DNA of 32,000 bases, taken from positions 540,001-572,000 of the forward strand of contig CP060232.1 in assembly GCA_023898645.1 (NCBI GenBank), in the 5' to 3' direction. Origin of the DNA: Candidatus Saccharimonadota bacterium (GTDB lineage Bacteria; Patescibacteriota; Saccharimonadia; Saccharimonadales; Saccharimonadaceae). This document shows positions 2,014-32,000 of this stretch, one piece after another. The translations under genes and the position numbers were made by a program. The stretch's first letter is position 1, and the number at the start of each line of letters is the position of its first letter. The notes below the pieces were generated by a model. That model saw nothing but the letters and a program-made list of their open reading frames with translations, did no database searches and was not told the DNA's origin.

Positions 2014-3288
2014 ATGAAGACCACCACAAAATACCTATCAGATACCAAAGTTATGATGACCATCACGCTCGATAAAAGCGAGTTAGATGATGCCGAAAAG
2101 GTTGCGTTACATAAGCTTTCAAAAAACGTTAAGGCCCCAGGTTTCCGTAAAGGTAAAGTTCCAATCGCCGTCGCTGCCAAATATGTAGATCCAAACACAT
2201 TAGCAAACCAGACGGTTGACGACGCGCTTAGCAAAGCCGTGTCAGTCGCCTTTACTGAAGAAAAGATACAAGCACTTGATCGCCCTCAGGTAGAGGTTAC
2301 GAAATTTGTTCCTGGTCAAGAACTTGAATTCACTGCAGAAGTAGATGTATTACCAAAGGTGAAACTTGGCAAGTATAAGAAAATGGGCGTCAAACGAGTC
2401 GTCAGTAAGGTTAAAGAATCAGAGATTGATGATGTCGTTGAACGAATGCGTAGCGGTCTTTCTGAACGTAAGGAAGTTAAGCGAGCAGCCAAGGACGGTG
2501 ATGAAACCGTCATCGATTTCATCGGGAAGCGTGACGGCGTTGCATTTGACGGCGGTACGGCAAGTGACTACACATTAAAACTAGGCTCTAACCAATTTAT
2601 ACCTGGATTTGAAGAAGGTGTCGTCGGCCATAAAGCTGGCGAGGAATTTGATATATCTCTAAAGTTTCCGGAAGACTATCATGCCGACGCTCTTGCTGGT
2701 CAAGATGTCGTCTTTACAGTTACGCTCAAGACCGTAAATGACGTAGCGCTACCTGAAGTTAATGATGCATTTGCTGCCAAAGCCGGACCATTCAAAACAG
2801 TCAAGGAGCTTCGAGATGACATCGAACGTGAGCTTGCGAAGTCTCACGAGCGTGAAGCAGATGATAAGTTTAAGGATGAGTTGGTTGCTAAGCTCGCAGA
2901 AGTCAGTGACGCCCCTGTGCCTGAAATTCTGATTGAAGACCAAGCTCGCTCAATTGAACAAGATATGTCACAAAATCTCGCATACCAAGGTATGACCATC
3001 GAGAATTACCTCGAGAGCAAAAAGTTGTCTCACGAGGAATGGCTGAAGACAGAGGTCCGCGATGCAGCCGAACGCCGCGTAAAGGCCGGACTTGTATTAG
3101 CAGAGATGAGCAAGGTGGAAGAAATCACTGCGACGAGCGAAGAGCTCGCTGCAAAGGTGAATGAATACCAGCAAATGTATGGTAAGCAATCCGGACAGGA
3201 CTTCACAAGCCCTGAGCTACAGCGCGATATTGCCAATCGACTCTTGACCGACAAGACAATTGACCGACTGGTCGAACTCAATAAATAG
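2014..3288 (+). CDS. tig: Trigger factor (ribosome-associated chaperone/PPIase)
   Basis: The ribosome-binding signature GFRKGKVP is present near the N-terminus, followed by an FKBP-like middle region (DFIGKRDGVAFDGG...IPGFEEG). Length is 424 aa, with typical tig-clpP adjacency. The start is taken at the internal ATG 2014 of ORF 1618..3288. Confidence 0.9.
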   Translation: MKTTTKYLSDTKVMMTITLDKSELDDAEKVALHKLSKNVKAPGFRKGKVPIAVAAKYVDPNTLANQTVDDALSKAVSVAFTEEKIQALDRPQVEVTKFVPGQELEFTAEVDVLPKVKLGKYKKMGVKRVVSKVKESEIDDVVERMRSGLSERKEVKRAAKDGDETVIDFIGKRDGVAFDGGTASDYTLKLGSNQFIPGFEEGVVGHKAGEEFDISLKFPEDYHADALAGQDVVFTVTLKTVNDVALPEVNDAFAAKAGPFKTVKELRDDIERELAKSHEREADDKFKDELVAKLAEVSDAPVPEILIEDQARSIEQDMSQNLAYQGMTIENYLESKKLSHEEWLKTEVRDAAERRVKAGLVLAEMSKVEEITATSEELAAKVNEYQQMYGKQSGQDFTSPELQRDIANRLLTDKTIDRLVELNK

Positions 3289-3292
3289 TAGA

Positions 3293-3324
3293 ATTAGCAC
3301 TCTATTGACGTGAGTGCTAATTTT
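3293..3324 (+). terminator. Hairpin terminator after tig
   Basis: ATTAGCACTC (3293-3302) pairs perfectly with GAGTGCTAAT (3312-3321) and is followed by a TTT run. The loop contains the -35 box of the clpP promoter. Confidence 0.7.
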
Positions 3325-3334
3325 GATTTATACT
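3305..3334 (+). promoter_or_regulatory. clpP promoter: TTGACG, 18 nt spacer, TATACT
   Basis: TTGACG is at 3305-3310 and TATACT at 3329-3334. The ATG at 3341 lies 7 nt after the -10 box and no SD is present, which is the geometry of a leaderless mRNA. Confidence 0.55.
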
Positions 3335-3340
3335 TAATAC

Positions 3341-7489: not shown

Positions 7490-10400
7490 ATGTCACGAAT
7501 AGTCCCAGGCACCGGAATCGCTGACTTTGACGCTGTGCGCCTCGCAGTTGCCAGCCCCGAGGATATCCAGAAATGGAGCCACGGTGAAGTTACAAAGCCG
7601 GAAACAATTAACTATCGTACCCAAAAACCTGAACGAGATGGCTTGTTTTGTGAGCGCATTTTCGGACCAGTTAAGGATATCAACCCGCACGACAACAAGC
7701 TAAAGGGCGTACGCTCTCGTGAAGCAGCTGTCGACAAAAACGGCGAATTGGTTACTAAATCAATCGTACGTCGTGAACGCATGGGACACATCACCCTAGC
7801 TGCGCCGGTCGCACACATTTGGTTTATGCGCGGCACTCCGAGTGCAATGAGCCTATTGCTCGGCACGACAGTCCGCAACTTGGAACGAGTCGCATATTTT
7901 GCAAGCTACGTTATTTTGAACGTCGAAACAGAGAAGCGAGACAAGATTCTTGCTGATCTTGAAGCCGAAACTGAAGCTGCACAAGCAGCCATAAAGATTC
8001 GCTACGAAAAAGAAGCTGAAGCTGAAAACGTAGACGTCAAGGAACTTGCAACAAGGCAGTCACGCGAAATTGAAGAGCTTAATGAAAACTACAATATCAA
8101 AAAAGCTCAACTCGATAGCCTCGTAAAGGGTGCTTTGATGAATGAGACTGATTACCGCAACCTACCAGAAGAATACGAAGAACTCGTTACCGTTGGTATG
8201 GGTGGTACGGCTCTAAAAGCGTTGCTAGACGAAATTGACTTGCCAAAACTCATTGCACAACTAACTGAAGAAGTTGCTGGTGCAAAGGGTCAACGAGAAA
8301 AGAAGCTGCTCAAACGTCTTAAGGTACTTGAAGGTATGTATGCCGCAGGCATCAAACCAAGCAGCCTTACTTTGACCATTTTGCCAGTTATCCCACCAGA
8401 CCTTCGTCCGATGGTTCAACTTACTGGTGGTCGTTTCGCAACGAGCGACTTGAACGATCTATATCGCCGAGTCATCAACCGTAACAACCGTCTAAAGAAG
8501 CTAATCGACCTCAACGCGCCGGAAGTTATCCGCCGCAACGAAATGCGTATGCTGCAGGAAGCAGTTGACTCACTGATAGACAACAGCGCCGCTCGTGGCG
8601 GTCGTGCTGTAAACGCAACTGGTGGTCGCCGCCGCCTAAAGAGTATCAGCGACATGCTAAAGGGTAAGCAAGGACGCTTCCGCCAGAACCTTCTTGGTAA
8701 ACGCGTCGACTACTCAGGCCGTTCGGTTATTGTCGTCGGACCAAAGCTCAAAATTAGTGAATGCGGTATACCAAAGCAGATGGCACTCGAATTGTTCAAG
8801 CCATTTGTCATTAGCTGGTTGATCCGTGGCGAACACGCTCATAACATCAGAAGCGCAACTCGTCTTATCGAAGCAGGTGATGCACTCGTTTGGGACGCAT
8901 TAGATGCCGTTATCGAGGGCAAATACGTCCTCCTGAACCGTGCACCTTCATTGCACCGTCTATCAATTCAGGCATTCCAGCCGAAATTGGTCGAAGGCAA
9001 GGCTATCCAGCTACACCCACTTGTTGCCAACGGCTTTAACGCCGACTACGACGGTGACCAGATGGCCGTACACTTGCCACTGAGCAAGGACGCACAGCGT
9101 GAAGCTCGTGAGCTCATGTCTGCAACGAATAACTTGCTGAAACCAGCCGACGGTGCGCCAGTGCTTAACATCGGACAGGACGTGGTTCTTGGTAACTACT
9201 ACCTGACATACGAAAAGCCTAGTGCGCAGACAGATAAGGTACGAGCATTTAGTTCGGTCTACGAAGCTGAAATGGCTTACGACGCCGGCGTCATCCAGCT
9301 ACAGACACCAATTCGTCTCCATGCTAAGGGTGAGATCCGCAATACGACACTCGGCCGAGTATTCTTTAACGAAATCCTACCTGCCGACTATCCGTACGAC
9401 AACAACGTCCAGAGTAAGAAGCAACTCAAGAAGGTTCTTGCTAAGATCTTTGATCGCTACGGCGCTGAAGAAACTGCAAAGACAGCAGACCGCATGAAGG
9501 GTCTTGCGTTCCGCTTTGCGACTATCGCTGCCGTATCGACTGGTAAGGACGATTACATTAACTTTGATCAGATCGACGGGTTCGTTAAGGAAGGTGACGA
9601 GCGAAGTGCTCAGATCTCCGACCAGTTCGACCAAGGTTTGATTACTGACGATGAGCGCTACAACCTTACGGTGGCTGCATGGCGTAACGTTGACCGTAAG
9701 GTTACTGAATTCCTGCAAGACCAGCTTAAGAACATGGATACCAGTATCTCCGTCATGGTTAACTCTGGTGCTCGTGGTGATATTTCAAACGTCAAGCTTG
9801 CAAGCGCCATGATTGGTATCATGGTCGACGCAACGAACCGTGAAATTGAGCTGCCTATCCGTTCAAGCTATAAAGCCGGTCTGTCATCACTGGAAGCCTT
9901 CGTGGCAACCCGTGGTGCGCGTAAGGGTCTTATCGACACCGCGCTTAAGACGGCCGACTCAGGTTACCTGACTAGGCGTTTGGTCGACGTGAGCCAAGAC
10001 GTATTCACTGTCGATGATGACGGTGATGAAGACGAAGGCTTTACGATCTATCGCTCAGAGACTGAGGACACGATGATTGAATTCGCCAACCGCTTGAAGG
10101 GTCGCTACACAGCCAAAGAGGTTGCAGGCCATATTGCTGCCGGTGAGCTCATCACACGTGAAATCGCCGACGCTATTGAGGCAGACGAAAAGGTAGAAAG
10201 TGTCAGCATCAAGTCTGTACTGTCGACCAAAAACCTGCATGGTATTCCACGCAAGAGCTACGGTATAGATATGGCTTCTGGCGAATTAGTTGCCGAAGCA
10301 CAGCCTGTAGGTGTTATCGCCGCGCAGTCTGTCGGTGAGCCAGGTACTCAGCTTACGCTGCGAACCTTCCACGCCGGTGGTGTTGCGGGTGGAGACATCA

Positions 10401-11266
10401 CCCAGGGTCTTCCACGTGTTGAAGAGCTGTTCGAAGCTCGTACACCAAAGGGCCAGGCTTATGTAACTGAAGTTACGGGTTCGGTTGATGTATGGGAAGA
10501 TGGCAAAAAGTACATCGTTCAAGTCACACCTGACAAGGGACATGTCGAAAAAATACCTCTCGAAGACCGAAAAGCCGCAGTCAAAGACGATAGCTACGTT
10601 AAGGCTGGCGACGTACTAGCAAATGGCGACAAAGGAACTAAACCACTTGTTGCACCATTTGACGGTTACGTAGAAGTCAAAAAGACGAGTATCGTACTAT
10701 CGGCAAATGCTACTGCACCTGTCCGCTACGAAATTCCAGGCAACACACAGTTAGTTGTGAAGGCTAGCGATCACGTAGTAGCAGGCGATCGTCTAACAAT
10801 CGGCTCACTCAATCTGCACGATTTGATGCGCTTGAAGGGCGAAGAAGCTACTCAGCGCTACATAATCAACGAAGTGCTGCGCATCTACGCCGCACAGGGT
10901 CAAGACGTTGCTGACAAGCACCTCGAGATCATCGTGCGTCAGATGTTTAGCCGTGTACAGATTGAAGATCCAGTCGAAAGCGAATTCGTCACAGGCGATA
11001 TCGTTTCAAAGGCAGCGGTTGTTGAAGCAAACAAAAATCTTTCCCTGCAAGGTAAAGACACTGTTAAATACACACAGCTACTCCTCGGTATCACAAAGGT
11101 TTCCATCTGGAGCGACAGCTGGCTATCAGCCGCTTCCTTCCAGGACACGACCCGCGTGCTTATCAACGCAGCCACCAGCGGCCGCGCTGATCACCTCCAC
11201 GGTTTGAAGGAAAACGTCATTATCGGCCGAAAGATTCCGGTCGGTACGGGCGCTGCCTCATACTAA
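7490..11266 (+). CDS. rpoC: DNA-directed RNA polymerase subunit beta'
   Basis: The catalytic NADYDGDQM motif and bridge-helix/trigger-loop regions are present. It begins 2 nt after the rpoB stop, with GGAGGAGG inside the end of rpoB. Confidence 0.97.
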
Positions 11267-25660: not shown

Positions 25661-26845
25661 ATGGCAGATTTCGATCGAACTAAGCCGCACGTCAACGTTG
25701 GTACCATGGGTCACGTTGACCACGGTAAAACAACCCTAACAGCAGCTATCACTGCCGTTCTTGCAAAGAAGCTTCCTAGCGAAGTAAACAAACCAATCGC
25801 ATACGACCAAATTGACAACGCTCCAGAAGAGCGAGCACGTGGTATTACCATCGCTTCTTCTCACCAGGAATACGAGTCAGAAGCACGTCACTACGCACAC
25901 GTAGACATGCCTGGTCACGCCGACTACGTCAAAAACATGATTACTGGTGCTGCTCAAATCGACGGCGCAATCCTTGTGGTTGCTGCTAACGACGGTCCAC
26001 TTCCACAGACTCGTGAGCACGTACTTCTTGCACACCAGGTCAACGTTCCTCGTATCGTTGTTTTCCTAAACAAGATGGACCTCGCTGACCCAGAACTAGT
26101 TGAGCTCGTAGAGATGGACGTTCGCGAACTCCTAACCAAGAATGGTTACGATGGCGACAACGCTCCTATCATCAAGGGTTCTGCTACTAAGGCTCTCGAA
26201 GGCGACGCTGCTTCTGAAGATGCAATCATGGAACTAGTTAAAGCTCTCGACGATTACATCGAAGAGCCTGTCCGCGAGCTAGACAAGCCATTCCTAATGC
26301 CAATCGAAGACGTATTCTCAATCAAGGGTCGTGGTACTGTTGCTACCGGCCGTATTGAGCAGGGTATCGTTAAGCTAAACGACGAGATCGAAATCGTTGG
26401 TATCAAACCAACTCAGAAGTCTGTCGTTACTGGCATCGAAGCATTCAAAAAGAACCTTGACCAAGGTCAAGCTGGTGACAACGCCGGCCTATTGCTCCGC
26501 GGTATTGAGCGCGAACAAATTGAACGCGGTCAGGTCGTTGCTAAGCCTGGTACGATTACACCTCACACTGAGTTCTCAGCTGAAGTGTACATCCTTAAAA
26601 AGGAAGAAGGCGGTCGCCACACTCCATTTAGCAAGGGTTACAAGCCACAGTTCTACTTCCGTACAACTGACGTTACCGGTGAAGTTGAGCTACCAGCTGA
26701 CAAAGAAATGGTCATGCCTGGTGACACTGTTACCTTCAACGTTAAGCTTCTTGCACCTATCGCCATGGAAGACGGTCTACGCTTCGCTATCCGCGAAGGT
26801 GGTCGCACCGTTGGTGCTGGTGTCGTAACTAAGATTACTAAATAA
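25661..26845 (+). CDS. tuf: Translation elongation factor Tu
   Basis: [21 protein letters not shown] and GSATKA are all canonical. The start is taken at [10 protein letters not shown], 9-10 nt after AAGGAG. The ORF-track start at 25619 lies upstream of that RBS. Confidence 0.97.
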
Positions 26846-26860
26846 TCTAGCTACACTATA

Positions 26861-26890
26861 AAAAGAGCTGCCCAAGGTAGCTCTTTTTAT
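26861..26890. terminator. Rho-independent terminator after tuf; symmetric, so possibly bidirectional
   Basis: AAAAGAGCT (26861-26869) pairs with AGCTCTTTT (26879-26887), with a 9 nt loop. Confidence 0.8.
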
Positions 26891-26967
26891 ATGTTTAGGC
26901 AAGAACAGAGCCTCGCTACCATAGGACGACGCTCTGTATCATAGGTGTGCGAGGCTACGTAGTTGTC

Positions 26968-27267
26968 CTATCGTCGTAAAGGGATTCGTCTGCGATTCGC
27001 CTTGATTGAAATATGCGTCACAGTTGATCCGCGGCGTCGTCGCTTTGGTAAAAATGTCATGTCGATGACAAAAAGGTCGCCATGAGACGCATCAATCTGC
27101 CTCTTCATAGCCCTTTCTTCGGATGAAGTCAGCTGAATCGGTGCTTCAAACTGAATATTGAAGTGAGAGCGGTTCTTCATCCTAAGACAACTTTCGAGGT
27201 ACTTACGGAGTTCCTGACGGATTGTTTCAAGTTTGCTTGAACGCACCTCCAGATCACTAGACGACAT
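26968..27267 (-). CDS. Hypothetical small protein (99 aa) with an Arg-rich C-terminus
   Basis: This ORF lies between two terminators and has a weak SD (AAAGGA). The C-terminus reads KRRRRGSTVTHISIKANRRRIPLRR. It has no recognisable family. Confidence 0.45.
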   Translation of the reverse strand: MSSSDLEVRSSKLETIRQELRKYLESCLRMKNRSHFNIQFEAPIQLTSSEERAMKRQIDASHGDLFVIDMTFLPKRRRRGSTVTHISIKANRRRIPLRR

Positions 27268-27342
27268 GCTGAGTCCTTTCGAACGGTAGGGTGTAAGGTA
27301 CTTCTATACTAATTATACAATGATTTCAAAGATGTGTCTGGC

Positions 27343-27377
27343 AAAAGAAAAACCCGCGAGTCAAGGACTGCGGGTTT
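27343..27377 (-). terminator. Rho-independent terminator of the gene at 27394..27642
   Basis: On the minus strand, AACCCGC pairs with GCGGGTT (plus-strand coordinates 27351-27357 and 27370-27376) and is followed by TTTTTCTTTT. Confidence 0.8.
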
Positions 27378-27393
27378 GTGGGTGGCTTACTGC

Positions 27394-27642
27394 TTAACGC
27401 CGGGCAATGAGTAATTGTTTACTTATGTCCCAGTTAACTTCAGCACCCAAGTGTCGCTCCAAATAACACAGTAGTGCAGTGTCGGGCTTGCCATAATACG
27501 GCACTGCTACAACGGTTACTTGTTCGGCTTTAATACTGAAGGTCTCTAGCTGATCAGCCACCACTCTAAATGTACGAGCAACTTCTTTATAGTGTCTTTT
27601 TCTCTCGATGGATTCAAAAAAACCTCTGAATAACCGATTCAC
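27394..27642 (-). CDS. Hypothetical small protein (82 aa)
   Basis: The GTG start lies 4 nt after AAGGAAG. The gene has its own extended -10 promoter and its own terminator. It has no recognisable family. Confidence 0.5.
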   Translation of the reverse strand: MNRLFRGFFESIERKRHYKEVARTFRVVADQLETFSIKAEQVTVVAVPYYGKPDTALLCYLERHLGAEVNWDISKQLLIARR

Positions 27643-27676
27643 GGTACTTCCTTAGCCTCGAAGTTTGCCTATGATT

Positions 27677-27685
27677 ATTATAACA
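27677..27685 (-). promoter_or_regulatory. Extended -10 (TGtTATAAT, minus strand) for the gene at 27394..27642
   Basis: The minus strand reads TTATGTTATAATAATC. TATAAT is the complement of 27677-27682. Confidence 0.45.
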
Positions 27686-27723
27686 TAAAATATATATAAT
27701 GAAAGCACGCCAAATCCCAGCAC

Positions 27724-27757
27724 AAATAAAACCCCGCCGCACCGATGGCGACGGGGT
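27724..27757 (-). terminator. Rho-independent terminator of the gene at 27771..28061
   Basis: On the minus strand, ACCCCGTCGC pairs with GCGGCGGGGT (one G-U pair) and is followed by TTTTATTT. Confidence 0.75.
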
Positions 27758-27770
27758 GTCGAGATCGATA

Positions 27771-28061
27771 CTAGGCGGGGGACTTGTAGACCGGAAAAGA
27801 AGTGGTCTTGGGCTGGAAAAAGAAGTGCCCATACTCAGGTAAATACAGTACGTAATGCCCGGCTGAAGCGGTGGTTGCGATGCTCGCAGCCAACGTGTAG
27901 TCGGCGTCGCTTGCCGTGCTATGCTCAACGATTTCTTTGGGTATACCCGTCCGCGAAACAAAGGGGTTACTACTGAACGGCGACACTGCCTGTTGAACCA
28001 GCCAGTTAGCTAGTTCTAGCTGAGCGACGGTGAATTTTGATTCCCGTACCGGACTCATCAC
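27771..28061 (-). CDS. Hypothetical small protein (96 aa)
   Basis: AGGAAGGAAG lies immediately upstream of the tandem ATGATG. The gene has its own promoter and terminator. It has no recognisable family. Confidence 0.5.
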   Translation of the reverse strand: MMSPVRESKFTVAQLELANWLVQQAVSPFSSNPFVSRTGIPKEIVEHSTASDADYTLAASIATTASAGHYVLYLPEYGHFFFQPKTTSFPVYKSPA

Positions 28062-28104
28062 ACTTCCTTCCTGAAAAGTTCAAACGAATATCGTCAGTAA
28101 TGAT

Positions 28105-28132
28105 ATTATAGCATAATCTCTATAAAATACAA
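28105..28132 (-). promoter_or_regulatory. Promoter (minus strand) TTGTAT, 16 nt spacer, extended -10 TGcTATAAT, for the gene at 27771..28061
   Basis: TATAAT is the complement of 28105-28110, TGC the complement of 28111-28113, and TTGTAT the complement of 28127-28132. Confidence 0.5.
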
Positions 28133-28164
28133 TATATCGTTACGGAGCTACTCCCTTTTGGGCA

Positions 28165-28193
28165 TTGCAGTTATCGAATGATGAGGTTATAAT
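28165..28193 (+). promoter_or_regulatory. Candidate rpsJ promoter: TTGCAG, 17 nt spacer, TATAAT
   Basis: TTGCAG is at 28165-28170 and TATAAT at 28188-28193. If used, it gives a ~250 nt 5' leader before rpsJ (28454). Confidence 0.45.
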
Positions 28194-28453
28194 AACCAAC
28201 GTATTATTAATCATACCGAGAACTTGTCTGTGAGCGAATGAGAGCACATTAACATCTATCAAATCACCTAAAAACTTTAGGTCCGGCACTTTACATCTGT
28301 TTTTCGCTTCGCGACGTACCATCTAGGTACACCTTGTCACGATAAGACCGACGGAAAAGCACTGGCTGCTAAAGTTTCGGCCTGATCGATAGATGCTAAT
28401 GGGCTCTCTGCAACACCAGCTCAAGGTTACGGTATAGCACGAAGGAGTATCTC

Positions 28454-28777
28454 ATGGCAGATGCAAAACCAGAAGGATTGCGAATCCGCATCCGACTTAA
28501 GGCCTATGATCACAAGGTCATCGACCAATCAGCAAAACAAATCATCGACACGGCTATACGTACCGGTGCAACTATTGCCGGTCCTGTGCCACTTCCTACG
28601 CGTCGTAGTACGTACACTGTGGTCAAATCACCACACGTCTACAAAACAGGTGGTGAAAGCTTCGAGATGCGCGTACACAAGCGCCTGATCGACATCACCA
28701 ACGCGACGCCAAAGACTATCGACAGTCTGCAAAACCTCAGCTTGCCAGCTGGTGTTGATGCAGAAATCCGAATGTAA
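28454..28777 (+). CDS. rpsJ: 30S ribosomal protein S10
   Basis: [26 protein letters not shown]...GPVPLPTRR...[23 protein letters not shown] is present. AAGGAG lies 7 nt upstream. Confidence 0.95.
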
Positions 28778-28795
28778 TTTATTGGTTACGAGAAA

Positions 28796-28820
28796 GGGAG
28801 CCCGGAAGGGCTCTTTTTTG
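28796..28820 (+). terminator. Rho-independent terminator immediately after rpsJ
   Basis: GAGCCC (28798-28803) pairs with GGGCTC (28808-28813) across a GGAA loop, followed by TTTTTT (28814-28819). Confidence 0.8.
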
Positions 28821-28873
28821 TTCTTGTGATTTAAGCACCGAAATATACTTTGGAGACCCAAAGTATCAAAGGT

Positions 28874-29317
28874 CCTTCTTTTTGTGTCGTCAAAAAGAAG
28901 CAAAAAGCTTTGTGACGGCTTCGCCACGCCGTGACCGACGAAACGACAAAAACGGTCGCTGCGGAATACCCTAAAGGGCAGTCGCGAATATTGATTTTAG
29001 TTACGGATTCGCGACACGTCCTCGCGAATGACTCCGTTCTTGTCATTCCGCCAGCCTCGGGTGCCTGCAGATGTCACGGTTTGGCTGTAGTTTTTACGCA
29101 GCAAAGCTGCGAATTATTAATCAAAATCCTTAATGTGACATCTGCAACGTCCGGAAAAAGTGACGTGTGCCGTCCTGGTTCAGCGAGGATGTTTGAGCCC
29201 GACAGTAGCGCCTGTCGGCGCGAGTTCCGCAGCTGACCAAGACGGGAGACGGAGCTTTTTGTCGCGACGTGAAGCCGTCACGAGCTTTTTGACTCTTTTT
29301 GTCGATACAAAAAGAGG
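28874..29317. repeat. Non-coding element bounded by inverted repeats: candidate large structured RNA or MITE-like element
   Basis: The terminal arms 28874-28922 and 29271-29317 are reverse complements at about 42 of 49 hand-aligned positions. Pairing continues inward: 28944-28952 with 29256-29264, and 28954-28964 with 29227-29238. The interior holds five hairpins: 28981-29015, 29026-29048, 29066-29146 (enclosing 29097-29111), 29147-29166 and 29199-29218. Confidence 0.6.
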
Positions 29318-29364
29318 TGACTTGGTTCTTGGTCATACAAGAACACTTAATTATATAAAACTTA

Positions 29365-29373
29365 TGCTATCAT
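29365..29373 (+). promoter_or_regulatory. Extended -10 (TGcTATCAT) 7 nt upstream of the ATG at 29381
   Basis: TG is at 29365-29366 and TATCAT at 29368-29373. Seven nt (ATAAAAA) follow before the ATG, and there is no SD. Confidence 0.4.
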
Positions 29374-29380
29374 ATAAAAA

Positions 29381-29710
29381 ATGACTCAAACAAACATACG
29401 AAAACAACGCCACCGTACCTATGCCCGCAACCGCCCACGCAGACGAGCCATGCCTCAGCTCCAAGAGGGCGACGGTGTCTATTTCCTAAAACTTGTTGTC
29501 GTGGTCATCCTCGGTACGTTGTGGCTTAAGTTCACGACCCCTCTCAGCTGGAACGGCTTGCCGCTAGCGGCATTTCCGCTAGGCGCACTGATAGCAGTCA
29601 CGATTATAAAGTTGTTTGAGCGCGATCAATACAATCGTAAAATTTGGTTTGCAGTGTTACTCGTCGTCATGATTATCAGCTACTTCGTACCCGCGGGTAT
29701 AGTACTCTAG
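29381..29710 (+). CDS. Small membrane protein (109 aa) with an Arg-rich N-terminus
   Basis: The N-terminus RKQRHRTYARNRPRRRA is followed by three hydrophobic spans. It has no recognisable family. Confidence 0.55.
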   Translation: MTQTNIRKQRHRTYARNRPRRRAMPQLQEGDGVYFLKLVVVVILGTLWLKFTTPLSWNGLPLAAFPLGALIAVTIIKLFERDQYNRKIWFAVLLVVMIISYFVPAGIVL

Positions 29711-30606
29711 TAGCCTCCGCCACTAATGCCCCAATATTGTTCAAGTGTATGTATTCCTTTTGCCTTCATATCCGTAGCTACTGTTGATCCAACATAACGC
29801 CAATGCCACGCCTCTGCATTGTAGCCGGTGAAACTTTCGTAACCCGATTGATACCGTTGAACGAATCCATAATCAGCTGCATGCGCTTTCATCCATACGT
29901 ATTGAGAGCTCTTTGCAAAACATTCGAGATTACAGGTATTATCAGCATCTAGGTCGACCGCGAAACCAGATTGATGCTCACTATAGCCTGGTCGAGCGCT
30001 GACCGTATCTGCAGCCGCCGTACTACCGTTGACTGCCACCCATTTGTTATAGGTAATCAATTGGTTACTATACGAACGATACGCACTGGTAAGTCCGATA
30101 ACTTCTCCCGATGATGCTGCTGCATCAAGCATCGAAACTAAATGCGAATATATTTTATTACTCACAGGGTAGCCCTGATAGTACACGATGTCGCTTGGTG
30201 CGAAATCAATGGGGCTAAAACAGTGCTTTTTGTTTATCAAGACATCAATCTGGTCCGGGTTGCCGTGCGCACCGCTAATTGCACAATTGGGCGTAGCAGC
30301 CTGATCATGTTGCGTCTTGAGAGCAGTCTCAGCAGTCGCTTTTGTCTCGGCAGCTTTCCTTGCGGCAGCATCATCCGCCGCTTTTTTATCTGCAGCTGCC
30401 TTTTCAGCTATTTTTTTAGATTTTATATCTGCAATCGTTTTATCGAGCTTTGCGAGTTCGGTTTGAGATTTTATTTGCTGCTTGGTGATAAGTTCATTGC
30501 CGTAATAGGTAACACCGCTAAATGACCCGGCAAAAAGCAATACAGAAATTAAAATCGAGATATAGAAGATTCGTCTGCTTTTTAGTTTTATTTTGAGCAC
30601 TAGCAC
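29707..30606 (-). CDS. M15-family (VanY-like) D-alanyl-D-alanine carboxypeptidase, membrane-anchored
   Basis: An N-terminal TM span (IFYISILISVLLFAGSF) is followed by an Ala/Lys-rich coiled segment. The zinc-peptidase motifs PGYSEHQSGFAVDL and EAWHWRYVG are present. Confidence 0.85.
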   Translation of the reverse strand: MLVLKIKLKSRRIFYISILISVLLFAGSFSGVTYYGNELITKQQIKSQTELAKLDKTIADIKSKKIAEKAAADKKAADDAAARKAAETKATAETALKTQHDQAATPNCAISGAHGNPDQIDVLINKKHCFSPIDFAPSDIVYYQGYPVSNKIYSHLVSMLDAAASSGEVIGLTSAYRSYSNQLITYNKWVAVNGSTAAADTVSARPGYSEHQSGFAVDLDADNTCNLECFAKSSQYVWMKAHAADYGFVQRYQSGYESFTGYNAEAWHWRYVGSTVATDMKAKGIHTLEQYWGISGGGY

Positions 30607-30687
30607 TATTGTAACAAATGAAAAAGCCCGCAGGTGGGCCTACCGAGGTCTCAATCAGAGAAACCCCAGCAGGCCCTACCATGCGAG

Positions 30688-31224
30688 CTATGATATCGTG
30701 GATCCCACACACTCTTTTGCCGACTCTTCCAATAGGGCGAACATGTCGTCGCGAAGAGCGACATACGCGGGAAATCCATAGAAATTATTGCCTATAAACC
30801 AAGAACGGGCAAAACTAATGCCTTTTCTGGCTTGCACGTACGTGAGCCACCTGTCAGCAGCCAACATGCGCAATTTTTCGTCGGTTGTCGGTTCGCACTT
30901 TAGGTTAAGCCACTGGTCAACGATACAAATGTCGTCAATATTCCCAGACAAAAGCCATATCTGGTGATAACCGATGATGTCACCAAGCCGTCGGATTCGC
31001 TGATACCAAGCGGTCTCCGTGGGGTGAACCAGCTGCTTGCGGCAGAAGCCTATGCTGTCGCAAATTTCTTGCGAATCGCAGGCTATGTCCTCCGGGCAGA
31101 TGAAATCATCCGGCTCTTGATCGTGGCGCTCGGCGCTGGTCGCAAAAGTATGCACGCAGCCCTTGTCTATACACCAGACCGGCGTAGGACAGTTCTCGTT
31201 ACAAGCGCTGAATGGGTGAGTCAT
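30688..31224 (-). CDS. Cys-rich cytoplasmic hypothetical protein (178 aa)
   Basis: The start is taken at MTHPF (ATG at 31224), 7 nt after AGGAG. The ORF-track TTG at 31245 contains that RBS. Eight Cys lie in the first ~60 aa (C-x3-C-x5-C-x4-C ... C-x5-C-x5-C-x5-C). There is no signal peptide. Confidence 0.6.
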   Translation of the reverse strand: MTHPFSACNENCPTPVWCIDKGCVHTFATSAERHDQEPDDFICPEDIACDSQEICDSIGFCRKQLVHPTETAWYQRIRRLGDIIGYHQIWLLSGNIDDICIVDQWLNLKCEPTTDEKLRMLAADRWLTYVQARKGISFARSWFIGNNFYGFPAYVALRDDMFALLEESAKECVGSTIS

Positions 31225-31300
31225 CAGACTGCTCCTAATATGCAATGGAGTGATCCATAATGTGCTTGTTTTGGCCGAATTTGGTCAAGACACGAAAAGT

Positions 31301-31309
31301 ATTTTAGCA
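31301..31309 (-). promoter_or_regulatory. Extended -10 (TGcTAAAAT, minus strand) for the gene at 30688..31224
   Basis: The minus strand reads TTATGCTAAAATAC. TAAAAT is the complement of 31301-31306. Confidence 0.4.
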
Positions 31310-31375
31310 TAAAAATTGTTAAGCAATGCTTAGAATATGCCCTCAATTATTAATACTCCAACAGATAAAAGACTC

Positions 31376-31404
31376 TTGACCCACCTCTATTTTTGTGCTA
31401 TATT
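31376..31404 (+). promoter_or_regulatory. Strong promoter upstream of rplC: TTGACC, 17 nt spacer, extended -10 TGcTATATT
   Basis: TTGACC is at 31376-31381, TG at 31396-31397 and TATATT at 31399-31404. Confidence 0.6.
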
Positions 31405-31519
31405 GAATCGGTAACTTATTACGTAATAAAAACTCGCTTCCGCGTGAATGAGCAAGTCTAAAGGGTAAAACCGACAGATACTACTCGCCACCGGAGGTTT
31501 TAAATGGGAGCAAAGCGCT

Positions 31520-32000
31520 ATGAAAGCACTTCTCGGTACCAAAATTGGTATGACCCAAATCATCAGCAAAGATGGTGTTGCTACTCCAGTAACATTGATT
31601 CAAGCTGGCCCTGTGACTGTGACTCAGGTCAAGTCTGTCGAAACCGACGGCTACAACGCAGTTCAAGTGGCATATGGTGAGGGTAAGAACCTGAGCAAGG
31701 CCGTTGCTGGACACACCAAACCAGCTCAAGTGACCCCGAAGACAATTCGGGAATTTCGCGTTGAAGACCTACCCGAAGATCTGAAAGTCGGTGATGCTAT
31801 CGATGTCAGCCAGTTTGCACTAGGCGACGTCGTAGACGCAACCGGAATCAGCAAGGGCAAAGGCTTCGCCGGAACGGTCAAGCGACACAACTTTAACACC
31901 AGTAAAAAAACGCACGGCGGCAACGGTAACGTGCGTAAACCTGGTTCGATCGGGTCTATGTACCCACAAAAGGTCTTTAAGGGCAAACGTATGGCTGGCC
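31520..32000 (+). CDS. rplC: 50S ribosomal protein L3, N-terminal ~160 aa; the 3' end lies outside the window
   Basis: Translation from the ATG at 31520 gives MKALLGTKIGMTQIISKDGVATPVTLIQAGPVTVTQVK...GKGFAGTVKRHNF...HG. GGGAG lies 9 nt upstream. The frame stays open to the window edge. Confidence 0.93.
   Translation, partial: MKALLGTKIGMTQIISKDGVATPVTLIQAGPVTVTQVKSVETDGYNAVQVAYGEGKNLSKAVAGHTKPAQVTPKTIREFRVEDLPEDLKVGDAIDVSQFALGDVVDATGISKGKGFAGTVKRHNFNTSKKTHGGNGNVRKPGSIGSMYPQKVFKGKRMAG

Follow-up and report, generated by a model that had tools for sequence, protein, structure and literature searches.

What occupies the spacer directly downstream of rpsJ, the gene for ribosomal protein S10, in the 32,000-nt stretch of DNA analysed here (the window)? 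This stretch is a segment of a Saccharibacteria (TM7) chromosome with rpoB/rpoC, rpsL/rpsG, fusA, tuf, and rpsJ, and the relatives of its S10 protein are annotated as Saccharibacteria. A first-pass annotation had described positions 28874–29317 as a non-coding structured element of ~445 nt and had hedged between a large structured RNA and a MITE (a miniature transposable element with inverted repeats), which is a reasonable hedge. We find that the element consists of two hairpin units arranged head to head around a central linker and spans about 28815–29349, and the covariance model described below (R1) finds its right arm on the plus strand and its left arm on the minus strand. On balance, this doublet is probably one copy of a lineage-specific, non-autonomous family of structured intergenic repeats of Saccharimonadales that acts via a single-strand fold. 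The family is previously uncatalogued; to our knowledge, no repeat or regulatory-RNA family of Saccharibacteria has been described, and a search of full-text literature on such repeats, only partly restricted to the term 'Saccharibacteria', returned nothing relevant.

The high degree of structure claimed for 28874–29317 is borne out by folding, with minimum free energies of −211.9 kcal/mol on the plus strand and −209.1 kcal/mol on the minus strand, far below the ~−137 and ~−131 kcal/mol of shuffled sequences (z = −11.9 and −12.5; 0 of 100 shuffles as good). The individual pairings hold as well. The outer arms pair between 28877–28909 and 29283–29315 (33 nt, 88% complementary; by BLAST, 28877–28922 versus 29271–29315, 87% over 46 nt), the inner pairings 28944–28952/29256–29264 and 28958–28966/29225–29233 are each complementary at 9 of 9 positions, and the perfect 12-bp stem 29066–29077/29135–29146 is present and encloses a hairpin at 29097–29111. 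Rfam 15 yielded nothing at the gathering score in the window, nothing at E ≤ 10 inside the element, and no match to the units at E ≤ 10 in six other unit-bearing loci, so that the element represents no known RNA family, RNase P, tmRNA, SRP, and 6S RNA among them; ARAGORN detected no tRNA or tmRNA in it.

Related units were found in 15 other distinct Saccharibacteria loci, as doublets, as solo units, and in one locus with a NUDIX gene between the arms. Scanning a genome collection with the pattern CAAAAAGCTN{1,2}GTGACGGCTTC, which both window arms satisfy, identified homologues in two other Saccharibacteria metagenome-assembled genomes (L021 and L022) at sites other than rpsJ; the L021 version is ~1 kb long, and L022 holds a single arm beside the rpsG terminator. 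An exact 19-mer is common to the window, L021, and L022 copies. With this 19-mer, a scan of JGI metagenomes gave 20 loci, of which 12 are true homologues and 11 distinct (L032 and L026 are the same copy from two samples), and a protein search with a spurious open reading frame (ORF) across the core added two more loci. Three of the five genome-scan loci (L018–L020) and eight of the 20 metagenome loci (L028, L029, L034, L035, L036, L040, L041, and L042) were discarded as GC-rich chance matches to the patterns. Phage and plasmid collections (BLASTN) and IMG/VR (pattern scans) contained no homologue, the lone match from these scans (L017) being a chance hit inside a phage ORF. The first-pass annotation had suggested looking for dispersed copies with target-site duplications in related genomes: the homologues at differing sites exist, the duplications were not found.

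We built the covariance model R1 from 14 right arms. It matches 16 A-type units and, on the opposite strand, 5 left arms, over its full length except in four units (L027, L038, L039) that lie at a contig end or close to one, and a left-arm profile matches right arms in reverse complement over ~125 positions. By R1, five doublets combine a B-type unit (−) with an A-type unit (+); doublets without cargo occur in the window, L025, L030, and L037, with a short one in L027. The terminal inverted repeats measure 33–46 nt at 87–88% in the window and 81 nt at 86% in L021. In L021, a 149-aa NUDIX gene (Pfam, 1.8e-14) and promoter-like sequence lie between the head repeats CTGCAGATGTCAC and GTGACATCTGCAG, and this insert of ~490 nt interrupts a linker homologous to window positions 29078–29134. 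Solo A-type units follow gltX (L039) or genes of unknown function (L026, L031), lie in the gap between thioredoxin gene and L10 leader (L023) or upstream of infC (L038), and adjoin the end of the atp operon at atpC (L026) or rpsG (L022); overall, the neighbours of the units are housekeeping genes. Rfam also recognises an RNase P RNA after rplT in L038 (1433–1768, 254 bits) and an L10 leader directly downstream of the unit in L023 (629–770, minus strand, 61.7 bits).

The window contains one doublet only, and BLASTN, nhmmer, and cmsearch of its 32 kb found the two arms and no further copy. In ~114 kb of positive loci we encountered one further copy beyond those that had drawn each locus in, which puts the copy number, as a rough estimate, at the order of ten per genome. 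Contigs L027, L038, and L039 start or end within units; in L039, the tail of one unit occupies the first 53–59 nt and the head of another lies at 3197–3336, 3.2 kb away. Contigs of the window's own strain, with the same S10 protein, match it at 100% identity, and three of them end inside the element core, at 29217–29232. L021 and L039 appear to have a unit at the same position because the genes downstream are similar, L039 having a further unit after gltX; by eye, the N terminus of the gene downstream of the L021 element (7761–8000) resembles the PMT_2-type glycosyltransferase encoded behind the first unit fragment of L039 (154–1680).

Each unit is a rod-like hairpin of ~230 nt. Read head to tail, it opens with GTGAC, which supplies the 5′ strand of the closing helix (P1), and ATCTGCAG, passes through a stem of ~35 bp to a near-invariant apical motif of ~46 nt with the core consensus CGAGGA(c)TGTyTGAGCCCGACA-loop-TGTCGGCGCGAGTTCCGCAG, and returns along the other stem strand to GAAGCCGTCAC, within which lies the 3′ strand of P1; a U-rich tract and the hairpins CTTCTTTT..AAAAGAAG and GGTTCTTGG..CAAGAACA follow. 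In B-type left arms, the rod and the motif pair CGAGGA/UUCCGCAG are retained, and the apical hairpins differ from those of A-type units. The covariation analysis of homologues recommended by the first-pass annotation strongly supports a conserved secondary structure. In a MAFFT alignment of the 14 right arms, using the consensus of individual minimum-energy folds, 86% of cells are paired versus 41–44% with the partner slid, 48 of 75 pairs are changed on both sides, and 0 of 500 shuffles reach any measure. The corresponding values for a model-based alignment of 21 units are 90.9% versus 40–44% and 55 of 75 pairs; here the covariation score is 0.486 (0.06–0.10 when slid), and 0 of 500 shuffles reach any of five measures. 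The MAFFT figures are the fairer ones, because the model-based alignment is fitted to structure.

The core helices show no variation and are therefore uninformative on pairing. Their invariance arises partly by ascertainment, because the metagenomes were searched with the 3′-most 19 nt of the core and the protein search depended on the core as well. The 5′ half of the core, which the 19-mer search did not require, varies hardly more; in L021 and L022, which the other pattern retrieved, the 19-mer is intact, and L043 carries one substitution. Short similarities of the apical motif (GAGC..GUUC, CGAGGAUGU, UGCGGAA/UUCCGCA), judged by eye and with no Rfam backing, led us to consider group II intron domain V, group I P/Q, a K-turn, a CsrA site (RUACARGGAUGU), a mimic of the 23S GTPase centre, and a tmRNA or tRNA T-loop, all of which were rejected for misfits in spacing or pairing and count as leads at most.

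Which strand carries the fold? In 16 of 18 units, the head-to-tail (sense) strand has the more stable fold, the mean gain being 10.2 kcal/mol, of which 4.6 kcal/mol is due to composition as judged by dinucleotide shuffles; since the units are related, these comparisons are not independent trials. When the pairs predicted from the two strands are pooled, G–U pairs outnumber A–C pairs by 33 to 14 (25 to 14 minus one core column), and two core U–G pairs are invariant or nearly so. In the window, the right arm folds at −93.3 kcal/mol on the plus strand versus −81.8 kcal/mol on the minus strand, and the left arm at −101.4 kcal/mol on the minus strand versus −91.4 kcal/mol on the plus strand. Such a bias suggests that one strand, as RNA or DNA, takes on a single-stranded form, and that the two arms of a doublet do so on opposite strands. 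A role of the unit at the RNA level is plausible, if less probable than not.

The alternative that survives best holds that the A-type unit (29125–29352, or the 150-nt rod 29135–29281) represents a new family of structured RNA without present-day mobility. Such an RNA would be derived from 3′ untranslated regions or made as its own transcript, its apical motif would bind a protein, its rod and U-tract would serve as terminator or stabiliser, and the left arms would be decayed inverted copies. The strong covariation, the sense-strand bias in excess of composition, the invariant or nearly invariant core U–G pairs, the U-rich tract past the closing helix, and the structure kept at the shared rpsJ locus despite 35% divergence would all be expected of it, as would the three solo units directly 3′ of a gene that runs the same way (gltX in L039; the other two are in L026 and L031). 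We nevertheless consider it unlikely. No conserved promoter was found upstream of the unit heads, the orientation of solo units is mixed, with four of seven pointing away from the neighbouring gene, and both orientations occur at the same locus; moreover, the left arms keep the fold with a sense bias of their own on the other strand, and a multi-copy, non-syntenic distribution is odd for a housekeeping RNA.

The single ~445-nt RNA gene envisaged by the first-pass annotation, a multi-branch plus-strand RNA whose arms pair as a closing helix around a multi-hairpin core, fares worse and is improbable. When a doublet is folded as one RNA, inter-arm pairing wins over separate arms by 10–50 kcal/mol in all four doublets tested, and the minimum-free-energy fold contains a closing helix of ~48 bp. 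A single closing helix is thus physically reasonable, yet it is not what is conserved. The conserved module is the single arm of ~230 nt, which also occurs solo, with no partner arm. P1 covaries within one arm (GTGAC/GTCAC, GGGGC/GCCCC, GTGGT/ACCAC), including the solo units L024 and L033, and the arm therefore closes on itself. The two arms of a doublet are only 42–57% alike, with long stems unable to pair together, and they favour opposite strands, the left arm folding better on the minus strand. The linker, in turn, can accommodate a whole gene, and the position of the element is non-syntenic across genomes.

At the rpsJ site, the element is present in the window and in L030 only, in opposite orientations. 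The element is missing behind rpsJ in L008–L016 and L045–L053, which make up at least 11 distinct sequences, the rpsJ nucleotide identity of these element-free relatives being 77–83% for L045–L051, 84.5% for L052, and 86.4% for L053; in L008, the rpsJ stop codon lies 46 nt from the start of the homologue of a 109-aa gene that follows the element in the window. L030 is the closest relative with tuf available (86.8% nucleotide identity versus 81–82% for others), and its element lies reversed between the same landmarks, a similar rpsJ terminator hairpin and the CTTATGCTAT promoter of the 109-aa gene. The A-type unit of the window is 65% identical to that of L030 and 79% identical to that of L043. 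Two histories fit this site. Either a single old insertion was later inverted and its copy replaced, or there were two insertions, each beside a terminator. Three unit tails, possibly four, abut a terminator T-run.

Opposite orientations at the same junctions, here in two different organisms, would also result from an invertible DNA switch, in which a site-specific recombinase flips the segment between the inverted repeats and thereby alters transcription of the neighbour, and both the assemblies that break within the element and the promoter-like site in the linker (29141–29113, minus strand) agree with such a switch. We regard it as very improbable: the 109-aa gene is served by a promoter of its own that lies outside the element and is conserved in element-free relatives; the contigs break in the repeated core (29217–29232) and not at the inner edges of the inverted repeats; solo and cargo-bearing copies do not fit; and no recombinase gene was found nearby. 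That the stretch encodes a protein (ORF 28931–29236, 101 aa, or another short ORF) can be practically dismissed. Open reading frames of 68–101 aa do exist on both strands and a gene caller annotated such frames in two metagenomes, but none of four internal ORFs has a Pfam match, only two weak relatives, both sharing just the translated core, appear among 5.8 billion proteins, and the variants GAGGACTGT have no internal ATG. Nor is any reading frame kept, because indels of lengths not divisible by three and replacements of whole hairpins set the homologues apart. The first-pass view of a stretch with no convincing gene stands, and no coding signal was seen.

We therefore return to the structured repeat family of Saccharimonadales as the preferred reading. 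The element behaves as a non-autonomous, mobilisable or recombining repeat because it has no gene of its own and because, judging from presence, absence, and placement, it appears to have entered the spacer downstream of rpsJ, immediately behind the rpsJ terminator, in the lineage that includes the window and L030. Of the MITE option, the long inverted arms, the lack of a gene, the copies at other sites, the presence/absence pattern at the rpsJ site, and some signs of several copies per genome are borne out, whereas a target-site duplication and a parent insertion sequence were not found. Each unit would act via the fold of one strand, read head to tail, either in read-through RNA or in exposed single-stranded DNA. 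This fold is predicted to comprise the short closing helix GUGAC/GUCAC, a freely covarying stem of ~35 bp, the apical motif of ~46 nt, the U-rich tract, and the two tail hairpins. The apical motif may be the docking site of a putative conserved protein, and the doublet in place would form a very stable hairpin block reaching from the rpsJ terminator to the promoter of the next gene. We infer this mechanism, from single-strand fold through protein at the apical motif to hairpin block between terminator and promoter. More tentatively, the unit may represent a new class of functional single-stranded element, a rod-shaped site in RNA or single-stranded DNA whose apical motif is bound by protein, with doublets forming a slot that captures and moves genes such as the NUDIX gene of L021; we consider this conceivable rather than probable. 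If true, it would amount to a hairpin-based gene-cassette or 3′-end RNA system not described for the candidate phyla radiation.

Several observations weigh against the mobile-repeat reading. The flanks of five doublets and ten solo ends show no consistent target-site duplication, with a possible TTAGT in L025 only. No transposase or recombinase lies beside any of the 16 loci, where the neighbours are housekeeping genes, and an autonomous parent element was not found, no search aimed at the autonomous form having been made. The copy number per genome, a rough inference, is backed indirectly by the one extra copy in ~114 kb of positive loci, the invariance of the core is inflated in that several searches required the core, and the sequence does not tell RNA from DNA as the functional single strand. 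Furthermore, the helices of the window and L030 are intact although their A-type units are only 65% identical, which looks like in-place purifying selection and a host function rather than a decaying selfish insert.

In the window copy, the left arm is a diverged B-type unit on the minus strand (28837–29087; R1 over its full length, 87.7 bits, E 1e-16) and the right arm a canonical A-type unit on the plus strand (29125–29352; R1, 228.6 bits, covarying rod), arranged head to head. The ends of the element were compared with those in L021, L025, L030, and L037, and its outermost inverted repeat is 28819–28827/29337–29345. Direct comparison of the ends reveals an extra degenerate copy of the outer tail hairpin at 28819–28839 (−), TGTTCTTGTGATTTAAGCACC, with GGTTCTTGAAATCACAAGAACA as its counterpart in L021. 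From the outside inwards, the left unit contains, all on the minus strand, tail hairpin 2 at 28845–28866 (the variant ATACTTTGG/CCAAAGTAT, from an inverted-repeat search and R1), tail hairpin 1 at 28875–28900 (CTTCTTTTTG..CAAAAAGAAG, a perfect 10-bp hairpin; this helix 6 covaries across the family), and GTGACGGCTTC at 28912–28922, by alignment the 3′ strand of its closing helix P1 and the complement of GAAGCCGTCAC. These are followed by the apical hairpin GTCGCGAAT..ATTCGCGAC at 28981–29015 (alignment), the conserved block ACGTCCTCGCGAATGACTCCGTT at 29016–29038, whose complement contains CGAGGACGT and which is the same in the window and L021 and partly kept in L025, L030, and L037, and the head CTGCAGATGTCAC at 29065–29077, which alignment and partner-repeat comparison identify as the left edge of the linker or cargo site. 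The left arm retains the rod fold and the motif pair CGAGGA/UUCCGCAG and lacks the GAGCCCGACA apical hairpin; at the position of its own apical hairpin, L021 has GTCATTTTT..AAAAATGAC, a run of compensatory changes relative to the window.

The central linker (29078–29134), an empty cargo site homologous to the interrupted L021 linker, contains the small hairpin CGCAGCAAAGCTGCG at 29097–29111. A sigma-70-like match on the minus strand (29141–29113; ATGTCA, 17-nt spacer, AATAAT), the first hexamer of which is the head repeat of the right arm, is directed into the left arm, along its favoured strand. The right unit begins on the plus strand with the head GTGACATCTGCA at 29135–29146, in which GTGAC is the 5′ strand of the covarying P1, and continues with the near-invariant apical core CGAGGATGTTTGAGCCCGACA[GTAGCGCC]TGTCGGCGCGAGTTCCGCAG at 29184–29232 (38 invariant columns in 14 units) and, by alignment, GAAGCCGTCAC at 29271–29281, which contains the 3′ strand of P1. 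The U-rich tract beyond the rod, GAGCTTTTTGACTCTTTTTGT at 29282–29302 (+), is a possible terminator tail in the sense direction: a terminator-like site at 29268–29282 is followed by AGCTTTTTGA, and YTTTTG is kept family-wide. Tail hairpin 1 at 29293–29316 (+; inverted repeat, covarying helix 6) and tail hairpin 2, GGTTCTTGG..CAAGAACA, at 29324–29345 (+; helix 7, terminator scan) complete the unit, the latter forming the outer end of the element. The hairpins at 28845–28866 and 29325–29344, previously taken to flank the element, are real, and both are tail hairpins of the units and lie inside it.

Upstream of the element, rpsJ (28454–28777, +) is a 107-aa ORF, the identical gene in L001 matching Pfam Ribosomal_S10. 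Its intrinsic terminator (28792–28819, +; terminator scan, 12-bp stem then TTTTTT) has a T-run that leads straight into the outer end of the element, and rpsJ of L030 is also trailed by a similar terminator-like hairpin. Downstream, 29361–29710 (+) comprises the promoter-like CTTATGCTATCAT, a motif common to L008, L013, and L030, and the ORF of the 109-aa membrane-protein gene (29381–29710), which in relatives normally sits close behind rpsJ. The promoter-like motif CTTATGCTAT(n)AT stands 7–12 nt upstream of the start codon of this gene in four organisms (window 29361–29373; L008 ~8155–8175; L013 ~10455–10470; L030 300–330, minus strand), making the leader very short or absent. The placement between rpsJ and rplC given by the first-pass annotation is right as to the rpsJ terminator, which the element abuts; rplC is not directly next, with three genes or ORFs intervening. 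The S10 operon is split: rplC starts at 31520, and the gap of ~2.7 kb (28777–31520) holds the element, the 109-aa membrane-protein gene, a VanY carboxypeptidase gene (29707–30606, −), and, between VanY and rplC, a 185-aa ORF (−) that has no Pfam match. The gene content of this spacer differs in nearly all relatives fetched. The spacer between tuf and rpsJ (26845–28454, 1.6 kb) has four small minus-strand ORFs (26968–27267, 27394–27642, 27771–28061, and 28140–28322), two of which were run against Pfam and gave no family above threshold; AT-rich sequences upstream of two of the ORFs (27676–27703 and 28103–28128) bear a weak resemblance (~80% over 26–28 nt, E 0.6) to the region in which the promoter of the 109-aa gene lies.

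The unit in L044 is nested between two inverted repeats of ~75 nt that end in a small REP-like palindrome. This second, much smaller palindrome (GCCGTCATCC..ACTTGATC..GGATCC) occurs several times within 10 kb, at L044 45–75, 365–395, 421–450, 10083–10113, and 10344–10375, and also at L026 9921–9946 (−), ~40 nt past the unit tail. Tandem arrays of 7 nt (GGAAGAT, GGAAATA) lie beside the small palindromes at L044 9960–10330.

Saccharibacteria are ultra-small episymbionts with compact genomes of ~1 Mb. A conserved, covarying module of 230 nt between their core genes implies a putative partner protein, and the family is a source of rearrangement (insertion, inversion, and gene capture) within otherwise conserved ribosomal-protein operons. 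It also accounts for the breaks that assemblies of these organisms show at such sites, and the covariance model provides a means of annotating it. If the unit is an RNA, a new class of structured RNA is added; if it is a mobile repeat at the DNA level, a mobilising enzyme has yet to be found in the Saccharibacteria phylum.

How does the family compare with known systems? With OLE, ROOL, GOLLD, raiA, HEARO/omega RNA, and group I and II introns it shares a length of several hundred nucleotides and extensive conserved secondary structure; some of these large non-coding RNAs and introns have ties to mobile DNA, and the loops of introns can accommodate ORFs. Unlike them, the element has no Rfam 15 match even at E ≤ 10, forms a plain rod in place of a compact multi-domain core, occurs in several copies, non-syntenically and in either orientation, and has no IscB, TnpB, or reverse transcriptase gene nearby. 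The attC sites of integrons are likewise single-strand hairpins of variable sequence and conserved shape, with strand preference and a position directly downstream of an ORF, and the L021 linker, in which a gene and hairpin seem to have been inserted beside a similar hairpin, recalls a cassette. In contrast to attC, the core sites R and L (RYYYAAC/GTTRRRY) were not seen by eye in the aligned units, no pattern search having been run; an integrase-like ORF was not noted in the fetched loci, only some neighbours of which were run through Pfam; and there are no same-orientation arrays, the neighbours being in-place housekeeping genes and not cassettes.

The comparison favours BIME/REPIN doublets, ERIC, and MITE/MIC elements as the nearest known kinds. 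MITEs and MICs (MIC231 of Bacillus cereus) resemble the family in their long terminal inverted repeats, lack of a transposase, size below 600 bp, and passenger-gene version (the NUDIX gene of L021). They differ in that no target-site duplication and no matching autonomous insertion sequence, which was not specifically searched for, were found here, in that solo arms are common here, and in that the arms are conserved as covarying folds of ~230 nt and not as short transposase-binding ends. ERIC (IRU) and Correia elements are also imperfect palindromes of transcribed intergenic regions with long predicted hairpins in either orientation, are present or absent at orthologous sites, have larger variants with internal insertions at fixed points, and are thought to act on mRNA processing, stability, or termination. 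However, ERIC (127 bp) and the Correia elements of Neisseria (100–155 bp) are single palindromes, whereas each arm here is a complete stand-alone hairpin unit; Correia elements moreover have a TA duplication, whereas no duplication was found here, and IHF or promoter sites. The hosts of ERIC and Correia elements belong to another phylum.

The REP, BIME, and REPIN sequences of proteobacteria, which are mobilised by RAYT, are palindromic intergenic units as well, fold as single strands, and have no gene of their own. As with the Y and Z REPs of BIMEs, two unit types form inverted doublets around a linker and also occur as singlets; as in REP and BIME, the units are located after genes and beside terminators, and their structure is held by compensatory change. 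The units here are far larger (~230 nt versus 20–40 nt) and their copies fewer (of the order of ten versus hundreds), no RAYT-like gene was seen within 1–32 kb around each copy, a conserved apical motif of ~46 nt takes the place of the GTAG-type tetranucleotide, and a gene is possible in the linker. What sets the family apart from BIME/REPIN, ERIC, and MITE/MIC elements is thus the combination of a large unit, a conserved apical motif, doublets of two unit types, and a cargo slot.

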